In this document: one piece after another, positions 1 to 3,776 of the stretch
Layout: each line of letters begins with the position of its first letter
How positions within the stretch are numbered: the stretch's first letter is position 1
Virus record (IMG/VR): IMGVR_UViG_2582580966_000016
DNA from: a virus
Lineage: Duplodnaviria > Heunggongvirae > Uroviricota > Caudoviricetes
Reading direction: 5' to 3' (one strand)
Length of the DNA: 4,462 bases
Notes under the pieces: model-generated
What the model was told of the DNA's origin: nothing
Database searches by the model: none
What the model saw: the letters and a program-made list of their open reading frames with translations, nothing else
Program-made: the position numbers and the translations under genes

Positions 1-316
1 TATAATAAACTTACTTTTTTATCATTTTTCCACTTTAACAACATTTTGCTCCACTTTTCCACGACCAAACAACTTGAAATCTGGTTAAAATAACACGCAA
101 CACTATTCTTCTTCCTTGAGTCCGCCCGGAACTCGAAAAACAAACCGAGTTAAAGCCATTTTTCACAAAATCGATTTTGGGTCTCACCAAAGTTACGGGG
201 TTGCATACGCATTCGTTTATTTTCGAACGTGTACATACAAATATGCACAAAAATAATCAAAATTATTTTCTGAGATGCATTATGATATGAACACCAATTT
301 CGTATAGAGTCTCACT

Positions 317-907
317 ATGTCTCGAATTTTTGCTTACTGTCGGATATCAACGCTGGATCAGACCACCGAAAATCAACGCCGGGAAATCGAAAGTGCAGGT
401 TTTAAAATCAAACCTCAGCAAATAATCGAAGAACACATTAGCGGCTCAGCAGCAACCAGTGAGCGTCCTGGTTTTAACCGGTTGCTTGCTCGCCTGAAAT
501 GTGGTGATCAATTGATTGTGACAAAACTGGATCGCCTTGGTTGTAATGCAATGGATATCAGGAAAACAGTGGAACAACTGACCGAAACAGGTATCAGAGT
601 GCATTGCTTAGCATTGGGGGGCATTGACCTGACCAGTCCAACAGGAAAAATGATGATGCACGTAATTTCAGCAGTCGCTGAATTTGAACGAGACCTTTTA
701 CTTGAACGCACTCATTCCGGGATAGTAAGAGCCCGCGGCGCAGGGAAACGTTTTGGTCGACCACCTGTGTTAAATGAAGAACAGAAACAGGTGGTATTCG
801 AACGAATTAAGTCAGGTGTAAGTATAAGTGCCATTGCCCGGGAATTCAAAACCTCGCGGCAAACCATTTTAAGAGCCAAAGCAAAACTTCAGACACCTGA
901 CATATAA
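317..907 (+). CDS. pinQ: Serine recombinase / DNA invertase of the Gin-Hin-Pin-Cin family (PinQ/PinR-like), 196 aa
   Basis: 196-aa ORF in the ORF track. N-terminal catalytic motif [12 protein letters not shown] with the active-site Ser at position 11, resolvase-type catalytic core, and C-terminal helix-turn-helix ([20 protein letters not shown]). Near-identical to my recollection of E. coli K-12 PinQ/PinR, which I cannot tell apart by eye; the symbol follows the Qin-like context (adjacent nohA-like gene). Convergent with tfa as in Rac/Qin. Confidence 0.92.
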
Positions 908-1004
908 AAAATAATCTCGGTGTGAGATGCTTTACGTCTTCCAAGCCCCCTTCCTTGCCGTAAATGGAGAGATACATCTAATTATAGAATTTATATGTTT
1001 TACC

Positions 1005-1580
1005 CTACGGCAGTGCTGGCCATTCAATATCCGGTGCAGTTGATGTATCAACACGGTTCAGCAACACCCGATACTTTTTCCAGGCTTCCAGCAACAAGGT
1101 TTCTTCCTCCGTTGCGATCTCCAGATCCACAGCATCCTGAAGCGGCGCTATATGCTCACTGGCTATCTGCATCAGGCTGTTTTTTGTTTCTTCCGCCTCC
1201 CGGATCCGGAACAGTTTTTCTGCTTCCGTATCCTTCACCCAGGCTGTGCCGTTCCACTTCTGATATTCCCCTCCCGGCGATAACCAGGTAACATTTTCCG
1301 GTAACGGACCGAGTTCAGAAATAAATAACGCGTCCCCTGATGCCACGTCATAAACCGTTTTACCCCGATGATCTTCAACGAGATGCCACGATGCCTCATC
1401 ACTGTTGAAAACAGCCACGAAGCCTGCCGGAATATCTGGCGGTGCAATATCGGTACTGTTTGCTGGCAGACCTGTATGAGGCGGAATATATGCGTCACCT
1501 TCACCAATAAATTCATTAGTTCCGGCCAGCAGATTATAAATTTTTATGGTCCGTGGTTGTTCACTCATTCTGAATGCCAT
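1005..1580 (-). CDS. tfaQ: Tail fiber assembly protein (lambda Tfa family, TfaQ/TfaR-like), 191 aa
   Basis: 191-aa ORF; N-terminus [51 protein letters not shown] matches my recollection of K-12 TfaQ/TfaR. Its ATG overlaps the stop of the upstream stf remnant (TAATG on the minus strand), the usual stf-tfa coupling arrangement. A GAGG lies about 10 nt upstream. Confidence 0.88.
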
Positions 1581-1888
1581 TACGCAAGCCTCACAATATA
1601 GTTAAATGCGATGTTTTTGACGGTGTTTTCCGCGTTACCAGCAGCGTTAACGGTGATGGTATGTCCATGTGAACCAATCGCAACGGAGTGCGTATGAGCA
1701 CCAATACCGACAGTATGTGCGTGTGCACCTGCGCTTGCAGCAGTACCCGATACAGAGTGCGTATGAGCGCCTGCAGAAGAAGTGTTAACACTGTATTTAG
1801 AATAATCAGGTGATCCACTTCCCGGAGCACCACTGGAACCACCTGAAACAAATGTCATCGAATGGGTATGTGCACCGGCTGTCCCCAT
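1580..1888 (-). pseudogene. stfQ: Side tail fiber protein, C-terminal remnant of about 100 codons (stf'), with four GAHTHS His-box repeats
   Basis: Translation [17 protein letters not shown]...[64 protein letters not shown] is glycine/HxH-rich and typical of lambdoid side tail fiber C-termini. Only the C-terminal part is present; upstream DNA in this frame changes into J-like sequence near 1880. Confidence 0.7.
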
Positions 1889-2170
1889 GCATTTACCGCC
1901 CGGACTGTCAGCCTGTAATTTCCCAGCGCCAGCTGCGTGAAGCGATATGTGGTTTCCGTCGTCCGGGCCGTGCTGACCAACCGCTCACTGCCGTCGTCCG
2001 CTGCCACGGTCAGGCGAAGCATAAAGCTCACCCCCTTCACCACCTTCGGCGTGTCCCAGCGCGCCAGCACCTGGTATTCCCCGCTGTCTGCGGTGACTTC
2101 TGCGGTCAGGTGCTGAACTGCTGGCGGCGTGACACCATTCACCGTGCCGCTCTGGTCACCGTCAAAGTGC
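1855..2170 (-). pseudogene. Internal fragment of a lambda J-like tail tip / host specificity protein (J')
   Basis: Minus-strand translation ...[91 protein letters not shown] matches my recollection of an internal segment of lambda gpJ. It diverges after AVNAWGQ (about 1880) and starts where the Nu1 homology ends (about 2170). Its frame differs from both nohA and stf' (codon phases 0, 2 and 1), so there is no in-frame fusion. Confidence 0.65.
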
Positions 2171-2684
2171 GCCCCGTTATCAGTTCATCCAGCGCGGCTG
2201 CTTTGTTCATGGCTTTGATGATATCCCGTTTCAGGAAATCAACATGTCGGTTTTCCAGTTCCGGAAAACGCCGCTGCACCGACAGGGGGATCCCGTCGAG
2301 AATACTGGCAATTTCACCTGCGATCCGCGACAGCACGAAAGTACAGAATGCGGTTTCCACCACTTCAGCGGAGTCTCTGGCATTTTTCAGTTCCTGTGCG
2401 TCGGCCTGCGCACGCGTAAGTCGATGGCGTTCGTACTCAATAGTCCCTGGCTGGAGATCTGTCTCGCTGGCCTGCCGCAGTTCTTCAACTTCCCGGCGCA
2501 GCTTTTCGTTCTCAATTTCAGCATCCCTTTCGGCATACCATTTTATAACGGCGGCAGAGTCATAAAGCACCTCATTACCCTTGCCACCGCCTCGCAGAAC
2601 GGGCATTCCCTGCTCCTGCCAGTTCTGAATGGTACGGATACTCGCACCGAAAATGTCAGCCAGCTGCTTTTTGTTGACTTTCAT
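2139..2684 (-). CDS. nohA: Terminase small subunit, lambda Nu1 homolog (NohA-like), 181 aa, with the last ~14 residues replaced at a deletion junction
   Basis: N-terminal 167 residues (MKVNKKQLADIFGASIRTIQNWQEQGMPVLRGGGKGNEVLYDSAAVIKWYAERD...) are nearly identical to my recollection of lambda gpNu1 (winged-HTH cosB-binding domain). Lambda-like RBS GTGGAATGAACAATG. C-terminus ...DELITGRTLTVTRAAR differs from lambda ...DELIPGLLSEYIEQSG, placing a junction near 2170-2184. Confidence 0.85.
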   Translation of the reverse strand: MKVNKKQLADIFGASIRTIQNWQEQGMPVLRGGGKGNEVLYDSAAVIKWYAERDAEIENEKLRREVEELRQASETDLQPGTIEYERHRLTRAQADAQELKNARDSAEVVETAFCTFVLSRIAGEIASILDGIPLSVQRRFPELENRHVDFLKRDIIKAMNKAAALDELITGRTLTVTRAAR

Positions 2685-2704
2685 TGTTCATTCCACGGCC
2701 CAAA

Positions 2705-2861
2705 ACAGAGAAAGGAAACGACAGAGGCCCAAAAGTTCGTTTTCAGCACCTGTCGCTTCCTTTCTTTTCAGGGGGTATTTTAAATAAAAACATTAAGTTA
2801 CGACGAAGAAGAACGGAAACGCCTTAAACCGGAAAATTTTCATAAATAGCGAAAACCCGCG
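2705..2861 (-). other. cosB-like region (terminase small-subunit binding sites) between cosN and the nohA start
   Basis: The reverse complement closely matches my recollection of the lambda left-end sequence ...CGCGGGTTTTCGCTATTTATGAAAATTTTCCGGTTTAAGGCGTTTCCGTTCTTCTTCGTCATAACTTAATGTTTTTATTTAAAATACCC..., and contains inverted R-site-like repeats AAAGGAAACGACAG (2711-2724) and CTGTCGCTTCCTTT (2749-2762). Confidence 0.65.
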
Positions 2862-2873
2862 AGGTCGCCGCCC
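2862..2873 (-). other. cosN: lambda-type 12-nt cohesive end (GGGCGGCGACCT on the minus strand)
   Basis: Plus strand 2862-2873 is AGGTCGCCGCCC, the reverse complement of the lambda cohesive end GGGCGGCGACCT, flanked by lambda-like GTTACGGGG and CGCGGGTTTTCGC context. It sits about 180 bp upstream of the Nu1-like gene, as in lambda. Confidence 0.82.
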
Positions 2874-2908
2874 CGTAACCGGTCGGATCGCCGGAAAGGA
2901 CCCACGAA

Positions 2909-2925
2909 ATGATAATGATTATCAT
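2909..2925. promoter_or_regulatory. Perfect 17-bp palindrome ATGATAATGATTATCAT; core TGATAATnATTATCA equals the 7-1-7 Fur-box motif
   Basis: Read directly: positions 2910-2924 are TGATAATGATTATCA, a perfect 7-1-7 inverted repeat that extends to an 8-1-8 palindrome at 2909-2925. It lies 36 bp from cosN and about 155 bp upstream of the RHH ORF. Assignment as a Fur site is inference from the motif match. Confidence 0.4.
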
Positions 2926-2985
2926 CTATATAAGGTTTATCACAACATGTGTGTACGCCATCAAACCACGAGAAATAATCAATTA

Positions 2986-3018
2986 TGACGCAGGTATCGT
3001 ATTAATTGATCTGCGTCA
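2986..3018. promoter_or_regulatory. Inverted repeat TGACGCAG-N17-CTGCGTCA upstream of the RHH ORF; candidate operator
   Basis: Perfect 8-bp arms at 2986-2993 and 3011-3018 with an AT-rich 17-bp spacer, 62 bp upstream of the ATG at 3080. Function is inferred only. Confidence 0.3.
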
Positions 3019-3079
3019 AATTAACGTAAAAGCAACTTCAGATAATACAAATCAGCAACACTGAATATGGGAAAACATT

Positions 3080-3280
3080 ATGTCATCAAAGAACAGAACC
3101 CGCAGAACAACAACCCGCAACATCCGATTTCCAAACCAGATGATTGAACAAATTAACATCGCTCTTGATCTGAAAGGTTCAGGAAACTTTTCAGCGTGGG
3201 TTATTGAAGCCTGCAGGAGAAGGCTGGCAACAGATGCAACGCATCTGCGCCCGGCCAGCATGAAAAATAACGAGAAATGA
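3080..3280 (+). CDS. Small ribbon-helix-helix-like DNA-binding protein, 66 aa (cos-proximal lambdoid ORF, probably YnfO/YlcI family)
   Basis: 66-aa ORF with a basic N-terminus (SKNRTRRTTTR), a predicted beta-strand NIRFP, then two helices (NQMIEQINIALDLKG / NFSAWVIEACRRRL), which is the RHH (Arc/MetJ-like) pattern. Weak SD GGGA 8 nt upstream. Position and orientation (divergent from nohA across cos) match my recollection of ynfO/ylcI in K-12 Qin/DLP12, but I do not recall those sequences well enough to assign the symbol. Confidence 0.75.
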   Translation: MSSKNRTRRTTTRNIRFPNQMIEQINIALDLKGSGNFSAWVIEACRRRLATDATHLRPASMKNNEK

Positions 3281-3411
3281 ACGTTCGGTTACAGGAGCAG
3301 GTACCCACTGTCCTCCAACAATATTTCATCTTCATATCCGACGGAACAAGACTTACCCTGCCGGGATGTACAGAATAACAACAGAGTGATAATTAATTTC
3401 TGATGAAATAA

Positions 3412-3744
3412 TCAGGGTGCAGAAGGACTAAAGATAAACGTTTTCTTCACGCCTTTACACGGCCTGTCCTTCTCAAATCGCCATTTTGCCATCGCCTTTA
3501 CAACCTGCTCATCAAACAAATGGTGCGGCTCTGAACGGATAAACTCAATTCGGGTGACAGTACCATCAGCACCAATATCAAACTTCACATCAACCCGTCC
3601 CTTTATATAATTTGCCGCTGCATAGGCCGGATATTGTGGTAATGCCTTAACCAACTGTCGGGGCATATCTGTTTTATGTTGCGTACAGCCCATAACCAGA
3701 GAAGACAACAAAATAATTAACGGAAGGTTTCTTTTCATTTTCAT
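3412..3744 (-). CDS. Predicted outer-membrane lipoprotein whose mature part is a TonB C-terminal domain (TonB_C-like), about 110-aa precursor
   Basis: Signal peptide MKRNLPLIILLSSLVMGC with lipobox LVMG-C and Thr at +2 (no Lol avoidance Asp, so predicted outer-membrane sorting). Mature region PQYPAYAAANYIKGRVDVKFDIGADGTVTRIEFIRSEPHHLFDEQVVKAMAKWRFEKDRP aligns by eye to E. coli TonB residues ~160-230 (YP...[49 protein letters not shown]). Start is ambiguous: GTG 3753, ATG 3744 or ATG 3738; 3744 chosen. Confidence 0.8.
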   Translation of the reverse strand: MKMKRNLPLIILLSSLVMGCTQHKTDMPRQLVKALPQYPAYAAANYIKGRVDVKFDIGADGTVTRIEFIRSEPHHLFDEQVVKAMAKWRFEKDRPCKGVKKTFIFSPSAP

Positions 3745-3758
3745 TCCCGGCACAGATA

Positions 3759-3776
3759 AGAATAAGTCTTATTCTA
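3759..3776 (-). promoter_or_regulatory. 17-bp perfect palindrome AGAATAAGtCTTATTCT overlapping a putative -10 (TAGAAT on the minus strand) directly upstream of the TonB_C lipoprotein gene
   Basis: Positions 3759-3775 form a perfect 8-1-8 palindrome. Minus-strand TAGAAT is at 3771-3776, a possible -35 TTGATG at 3796-3801 (19-bp spacer, suboptimal). The start codon is about 20-30 nt downstream. Operator/promoter role is inferred. Confidence 0.35.

Follow-up and report, generated by a model that had tools for sequence, protein, structure and literature searches.

A predicted nohA/nohB-type Fur operator beside cosQ in a Qin-like prophage segment and its recurrence in lambda-like phages

Genes and cos region of the window

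The analysed stretch of 4,462 nucleotides (the window; IMG/VR record IMGVR_UViG_2582580966_000016) comes from a Qin-like cryptic lambdoid prophage of Escherichia. Its part 1-3214 was about 98% identical to many complete E. coli genomes (98.5% in the best complete-genome match), in which the genes of this part are annotated as pinQ, tfaQ, tail-fibre remnants and nohA, the gene to which a Fur site is assigned in published work. Compared with complete E. coli genomes, the contiguous Qin homology ended at 3214, within the YnfO-like open reading frame, and the sequence beyond 3214/3215, from the TonB_C lipoprotein onward, is a different mosaic segment. The features considered here are the following:

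317-907, plus strand: pinQ open reading frame
1005-1580, minus strand: tfaQ
2139-2684, minus strand: nohA, a homolog of lambda Nu1, the terminase small subunit (Pfam Phage_Nu1, E = 8e-101; named nohA in annotated E. coli genomes)
2709-2830 (approximate, set by lambda homology), minus strand: cosB-like region with R-box repeats between cosN and nohA, nearly identical to the K-12 Qin and DLP12 regions
2862-2873, minus strand: cosN cohesive-end sequence, GGGCGGCGACCT on the minus strand (AGGTCGCCGCCC on the plus strand), aligned with the lambda end
2897-2903, minus strand: cosQ, the packaging-termination subsite, GGGTCCT in minus-strand letters (plus strand AGGACCC), the 7 bp that the curated record of phage 434 likewise labels cosQ
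2909-2925, no strand: predicted Fur operator, the 17-bp perfect palindrome ATGATAATGATTATCAT, with a 15-bp core of the 7-1-7 type; ortholog of the K-12 nohA Fur site
2918-2945, minus strand: sigma-70 promoter-like hexamers TTGTGA-16-GATAAT, directed towards cos and nohA, from a simple scan; the -10 hexamer lies within the palindrome
3006-3019, no strand: FNR-type box TTGATCTGCGTCAA, with one mismatch to TTGAT-N4-ATCAA; ortholog of the K-12 nohA/nohB FNR site
3080-3280, plus strand: YnfO/YlcI-family DUF3950 gene (Pfam DUF3950, E = 5e-19; phrog_949), called an RHH open reading frame in the first-pass annotation
3412-3744/3753, minus strand: gene for a TonB_C-domain lipoprotein of 110 aa (Pfam TonB_C, E = 1e-14)

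The stretch 1580-2142, which abuts the 3' end of nohA, holds remnants of tail-fibre and J-related genes in the form of short overlapping open reading frames with the histidine-rich repeat GAHTHS. The head and tail genes that normally lie 3' of the terminase gene are deleted in the window. A sequence search of the PDB with the protein encoded at 3080-3280 gave no match.

A complete cos region of the lambda type separates nohA from the DUF3950 gene; across cosN, cosQ and the palindrome it aligned near base-for-base with the lambda right end and with K-12 Qin and DLP12. Relative to these three sequences the window carries a 7-bp insertion within 2927-2937 (alignment columns 247-253), just distal to the palindrome. 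The cosB-like region contains an inverted repeat (2709-2734 / 2740-2765), and its repeats are taken to be R boxes from what is known of lambda cosB. The cos elements named for packaging are cosQ (7 bp), cosN, I2 and cosB; the 7-bp cosQ is highly conserved, and packaging termination needs cosQ, cosN and I2 only (PMC4669245).

The palindrome and the Fur motif

The palindrome ATGATAATGATTATCAT is a perfect 8-1-8 inverted repeat centred on G2917, and its core TGATAATGATTATCA (2910-2924) matched the 7-1-7 Fur motif TGATAATNATTATCA without a mismatch, which bears out the perfect 17-bp palindrome and the exact motif match reported in the first-pass annotation. When the 19-bp Fur consensus GATAATGATAATCATTATC was applied, about 15 of the 19 positions matched on either strand. 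The only other match to the 7-1-7 motif in the window is a weak one with three mismatches at 3387-3401, beyond the 3' end of the TonB_C lipoprotein gene. The first base of the palindrome is 36 bp away from the cohesive-end sequence, and the palindrome is situated between cosN and the open reading frame at 3080-3280, both as originally described; what had been overlooked is cosQ, which sits between cosN and the palindrome and is separated from the latter by 5 nt.

The palindrome had also been called unlikely by chance. This assessment held for its Fur content, since the 17-mer pattern occurred once in the window and in none of 200 dinucleotide-preserving shuffles. It failed for the size of the palindrome: 34 of 300 mononucleotide shuffles of the window contained a palindrome with arms of 8 or more, and the window itself contains a second one at 3759-3775. 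The size alone is unremarkable, and the exact Fur-consensus content together with the conservation is the significant part. The frequency of such arms in shuffles would allow for an AT-rich palindrome that arose by chance and has no function, but the exact Fur-motif content was absent from the shuffles, the ortholog is bound by Fur in published experiments and the box is conserved across unrelated flanks, as detailed below. Conservation and published binding effectively refute this reading, and its probability is negligible.

Relation to published Fur sites of E. coli K-12

The Qin prophage of E. coli K-12 contains the identical core TGATAATGATTATCA, centred at position 3601 of locus L002, which is coordinate 1636600 of NC_000913.3. 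The gene nohA was placed at 1634391-1633822 of U00096.2 by Chen et al. (2007) and starts at 1636367 in NC_000913.3; the resulting offset of 1976, applied to 1636600, puts the K-12 core centre at U00096.2 1634624. At this very coordinate, 233 bp upstream of nohA (-233), Chen et al. (2007) located a nohA Fur site of 22.3 bits. The distance from the palindrome centre (2917) to the nohA ATG (2684) in the window is also 233 bp, equal to that in K-12. Purified Fur at 150 nM retarded an oligonucleotide with the nohA site in a gel shift (Chen et al. 2007), and a nohA fragment had earlier been selected in vivo (Vassinova and Kozyrev 2000, as cited by Chen et al. 2007).

The copy in DLP12 is the 17-bp palindrome ATGATAATAATTATCAT and corresponds to the nohB Fur site. 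Chen et al. (2007) score the nohB site at 25.3 bits and credit it to Fur titration by Stojiljkovic et al. (1994); among the strong clusters in the part of their Table 4 considered here, it stands third. The gene nohB is furthermore named among Fur-regulated genes in the review-style introduction of one paper.

These published experiments on orthologous K-12 sites support the reading of the palindrome as a Fur box. The binding site proposed in the first-pass annotation has one ortholog with a published Fur gel shift (nohA) and another with a cited titration result (nohB). Judged by this orthology, the window palindrome is a predicted Fur site of the kind already known as the nohA/nohB-type site of E. 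coli K-12, and the window copy probably binds Fur equally well as the K-12 copy. The annotation of the nohA/nohB-type site can be transferred to the window with confidence. As the palindrome represents this known site, there is no new iron-regulated system to propose.

The window shares with the K-12 nohA site the 15-bp core, the distance to the ATG and the flanking cosQ, cosN and cosB. The two differ in the extent of the palindrome, which is 15 bp in K-12 and 17 bp in the window owing to one extra pair, and in the 7-bp insertion distal to the box, which gives the window a better-spaced -35/-10 pair; the window moreover stems from another strain. The K-12 nohB/nohD site of DLP12 is likewise a 17-bp palindrome at the same place relative to cosQ, but its central base is A in place of the G in the window, and the gene on its far side is ylcI.

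Direction of action

The promoter-like hexamers listed above point from the box towards cos and nohA. It is the 7-bp insertion in the window that puts TTGTGA at a 16-bp spacing from the GATAAT within the box. One promoter match per 800-bp region is the level given by shuffles. DLP12 has a similar promoter-like match, GTGACA-16-TATCAT, which overlaps the box on the same strand, and the simple scan of K-12 Qin and lambda gave no match above threshold.

A transcription start at this place is also indicated by work on FNR. Grainger et al. (2007) identified the FNR site TTGATCTGCATCAA at K-12 nohA/nohB by ChIP-chip and gel shift, with its centre at 1634713.5, that is -85.5 from the nearest transcription start (nohA). 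This distance implies that nohA transcription begins at about 1634628, at 4 bp from the Fur box centre, and that the transcript crosses cosQ, cosN and cosB into nohA. A nohA/nohB::lacZ fusion had low activity under the conditions of Grainger et al. (2007). The low activity fits repression, and it fits equally a very weak promoter or no real promoter.

Myers et al. (2013), who used an FNR antibody, list a ChIP-seq summit at 1634625 under Fur-repressed operons. In U00096.2 numbering this coordinate corresponds to window 2917; the summit coincides with the Fur box centre and is 89 bp away from the FNR box.

We propose that the host Fur protein uses the palindrome as a high-affinity operator that was inherited with the cos module and overlaps a weak promoter directed towards nohA, which Fur represses. 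The probability of this reading is put at about 0.8. The palindrome would have come into the window together with the cos module of a Qin-type, lambda-like prophage. When iron is sufficient, Fur-Fe2+ dimers would occupy this 7-1-7 operator. The -10 and start region of a putative weak minus-strand promoter overlaps with the box; transcription from this promoter would run over cosQ, cosN and cosB into nohA, so that bound Fur would keep this transcript off by classical occlusion, and iron limitation would relieve the repression. The nohA-ward promoter is presumably active, and its repression may have a physiological effect in the decayed prophage. Classical Fur operators such as those of fhuA, fepD-entS and ryhB share the same consensus and the overlap of operator and promoter core; the window differs from them in its downstream gene, which belongs to phage DNA packaging and shows no evident iron function.

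In the first-pass annotation, the main target of Fur had been the divergent YnfO-like (DUF3950) gene at 3080-3280. The box does lie in the intergenic region upstream of this gene, and palindromic operators can work both ways. However, the palindrome centre is 163 bp from the DUF3950 ATG, and an FNR-type box and a -10-like hexamer, GATAAT at 3041-3046, are nearer to it. The FNR box is perfect (TTGATCTGCATCAA) in K-12 Qin, DLP12, lambda and 434. From their arrangement in the sequence, the FNR-type box and the hexamer would fit the geometry of a class II promoter of the YnfO-like gene with a start near 3054. With this inferred geometry the Fur box lies about 137 bp upstream of the start, which is too far for simple occlusion. 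Furthermore, phages phi80, N15 and 21 keep the box and have no adjoining divergent DUF3950 gene. Control of this gene by Fur is unlikely, and the likely target is the cos/nohA side.

Another candidate, an operator bound by the neighbouring DUF3950 protein itself, was rejected, as phages lacking a DUF3950 gene keep the box. In the record of phage 434 (L251), consensus CII-binding sites TTGY-N6-TTGY are found at 152-165, between the Fur box and the DUF3950 gene, and at 227-240, inside the gene. The first of them, equivalent to about 3030-3046 of the window, is degraded in the window.

Fur boxes beside cosQ in lambda-like phages

A sample of IMG/VR was scanned for cosQ-N(21-25)-GGGCGGCG with no requirement on the upstream sequence, and the 70-100 nt before cosQ were read. 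This yielded 79 distinct genuine cos sequences, which were grouped into 39 clusters of unrelated upstream context. With a box defined as GATAATNATTATC with at most two mismatches within 32 nt upstream of cosQ, 26 of the 39 independent contexts contained a box, versus 0.3% of 32-nt windows drawn at random from these loci. The box centre was located 11-15 bp before cosQ, a spacing that varies by 4 bp. The conservation across lambdoid cos regions, which had been left for checking at first reading, is thereby confirmed.

The sequence at the right end of lambda is identical to the window box, and phage 434 has the DLP12 variant. Further variants were found in phi80 (TTGATAATTATTATCA), N15 (CGATAACTATTATCG), phage 21 (GTGATAATTATTCTCG), VT1-Sakai (TGATAACCATTATCA) and the Klebsiella phage Kp4865-4 (CGATAATCATTATCT). 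The box is kept in active phages and not in relics alone. BLAST homology of the window with 21, phi80, N15, HK225, mEp237 and Stx1a phages stopped at 2923-2925, the distal edge of the palindrome, and in the cos type of mEp213, mEp043 and Kp4865-4 the homology with the window started at the first base of the box. These limits indicate that the box marks the edge of a shared cos block.

The motif-aligned logo was TGcAAaTGATAATcATTATCATTT, and in phi80-like sequences the palindrome extended to about 25 bp. Among 24 distinct variants, 35 arm positions deviated from the palindrome, none of them as part of a compensated pair, and the central base varied freely. The absence of compensated changes together with the free centre indicates a site for a dimeric protein with Fur-like half-sites rather than a hairpin, and a hairpin or cruciform reading was rejected on the grounds that none of the 35 deviations was compensated.

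In columns anchored on cosQ, the mean conservation was 0.30 bits in the palindrome zone versus 0.71 bits in the spacer between cosQ and cosN. The cosQ-anchored value is blurred by the 4-bp variation in the distance between box and cosQ, and the motif-based count is preferred for this reason. The idea that the cosQ-cosN spacer diverges faster than the box was dropped, since the column conservation was the opposite.

The box is not universal. Genuine cosQ-cosN pairs without it were found in paired-cos elements, in an Enterobacter Ravinvirus and in a few other loci. The paired-cos elements (L004, L013, L016, L043, L066 and L071 of IMG/VR) carry two inverted cosQ-cosN copies 560-900 bp apart and adjoin lambda-like head genes (major head, decoration and protease-like), with a Fur box in neither copy. 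Immediately before cosQ, one of the copies has a hairpin that resembles a terminator, GGCCGGAGAAATCCGGC and then a T run. These elements may be satellites or resemble phage-inducible chromosomal islands (PICI). In a scan of genome contigs for cosQ-N-cosN, almost all of the matches listed were chance matches in GC-rich genomes.

In the searched literature there was no mention of Fur in connection with cosQ, the cos site or terminase in such a sense. Phage or packaging is nowhere mentioned by Chen et al. (2007), and the curated record of phage 434, which has 213 features and annotates cosQ and the CII sites, has no annotation at the box. The searchable literature yielded no description of a Fur box a few bases away from cosQ in lambda and many related phages. 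The record of phi80 contains a 55-bp feature named 'cosQ; aka R4 region' that covers the box. The box is thus immediately adjacent to and co-inherited with the cosQ or 'R4 region' of lambda-like phages, but cosQ proper is the 7-bp GGGTCCT and the palindrome is a separate element. The IHF site I1 in cosB offers a parallel, since there, too, a host DNA-binding protein has its site inside the lambda-like cos region; I1 differs in having a demonstrated accessory role in the initiation of packaging, whereas the Fur box has no known packaging role.

Possible roles of the box in the cos region

One of the strongest Fur boxes of the E. coli genome is in fact part of the phage lambda cos region and is conserved in many lambda-like phages despite unrelated flanks. 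To our knowledge, decades of cos genetics have assigned no role to it. Regulation of the nohA promoter leaves unexplained why the box is retained near cosQ in phages with unrelated upstream sequence. The box may control unscheduled transcription across cos into the terminase genes, or its position may reflect simple linkage, with cos as the sole non-coding block common to these phages.

A broader function linked to cos is suggested here only tentatively. The strong Fur operator would be a conserved fourth cos element that is kept upstream of cosQ by selection, and iron status or Fur occupancy would then affect terminase expression across cos, the efficiency of packaging termination, or Fur titration while the phage replicates. 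If Fur occupancy does affect terminase expression, packaging termination or host iron homeostasis in infected cells, iron physiology would be linked to phage assembly.

The first-pass annotation had offered a cos-associated element as the alternative to a Fur box. This stands insofar as the box travels with the cos module; evidence that packaging needs the box was not found. More specifically, the palindrome could be a functional cos subsite, acting through Fur or through the DNA itself, that slows or positions terminase before cosQ or organises the DNA end. Such a role would agree with the box centre at 11-15 bp before cosQ in 26 of 39 contexts (0.3% of background windows), with the homology limits at the palindrome edges and with the position of the box as the last element that the packaging motor would meet before cosQ, as inferred from the known direction of packaging. 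On the other side, cosQ is described as 7 bp and termination as dependent on cosQ, cosN and I2 only (PMC4669245), genuine cosQ-cosN pairs without a box exist, the 4-bp variation in the spacing to cosQ means that helical phasing is not kept, and fur goes unmentioned in a genome-wide screen for lambda host dependencies. We regard a cos subsite as quite improbable.

The box might also act as a Fur decoy, in which at least a hundred replicating genome copies titrate Fur and derepress the iron uptake of the host. The principle is that of the multicopy Fur titration assay, for which Chen et al. (2007) cite a positive result with a cloned nohB fragment. The box is among the strongest predicted Fur sites of K-12, with nohB third in the part of Table 4 referred to above, and it is conserved in active phages. 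The idea is nevertheless entirely inferential, and one site per genome may be too few for titration. A decoy would also leave the adjacency to cosQ unexplained, except that cos is the one non-coding segment common to all these phages. This possibility appears very unlikely, and repression of a nohA-ward promoter by Fur is preferred as the explanation of the window palindrome.

The TonB_C lipoprotein segment

A link between iron and this prophage module had also been suggested, as speculation, from the TonB_C lipoprotein encoded nearby. This link is unsupported, because the lipoprotein gene belongs to a different mosaic segment, the Qin homology ending at 3214. The top PHROG match of the lipoprotein was phrog_1267, labelled 'Rz-like spanin' (E = 6e-43), a label that looks doubtful for a TonB_C-domain protein that occurs by itself at this place. 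A moron that disturbs TonB-dependent uptake is one possibility for this protein.

The second perfect 8-1-8 palindrome of the window, AGAATAAGTCTTATTCT (3759-3775), is located 15-31 nt upstream of the probable ATG of the lipoprotein gene (3744). It lies within GATAAGAATAAGTCTTATTCTAAC, which has a loose likeness to a Fur box with a different spacing of the half-sites.
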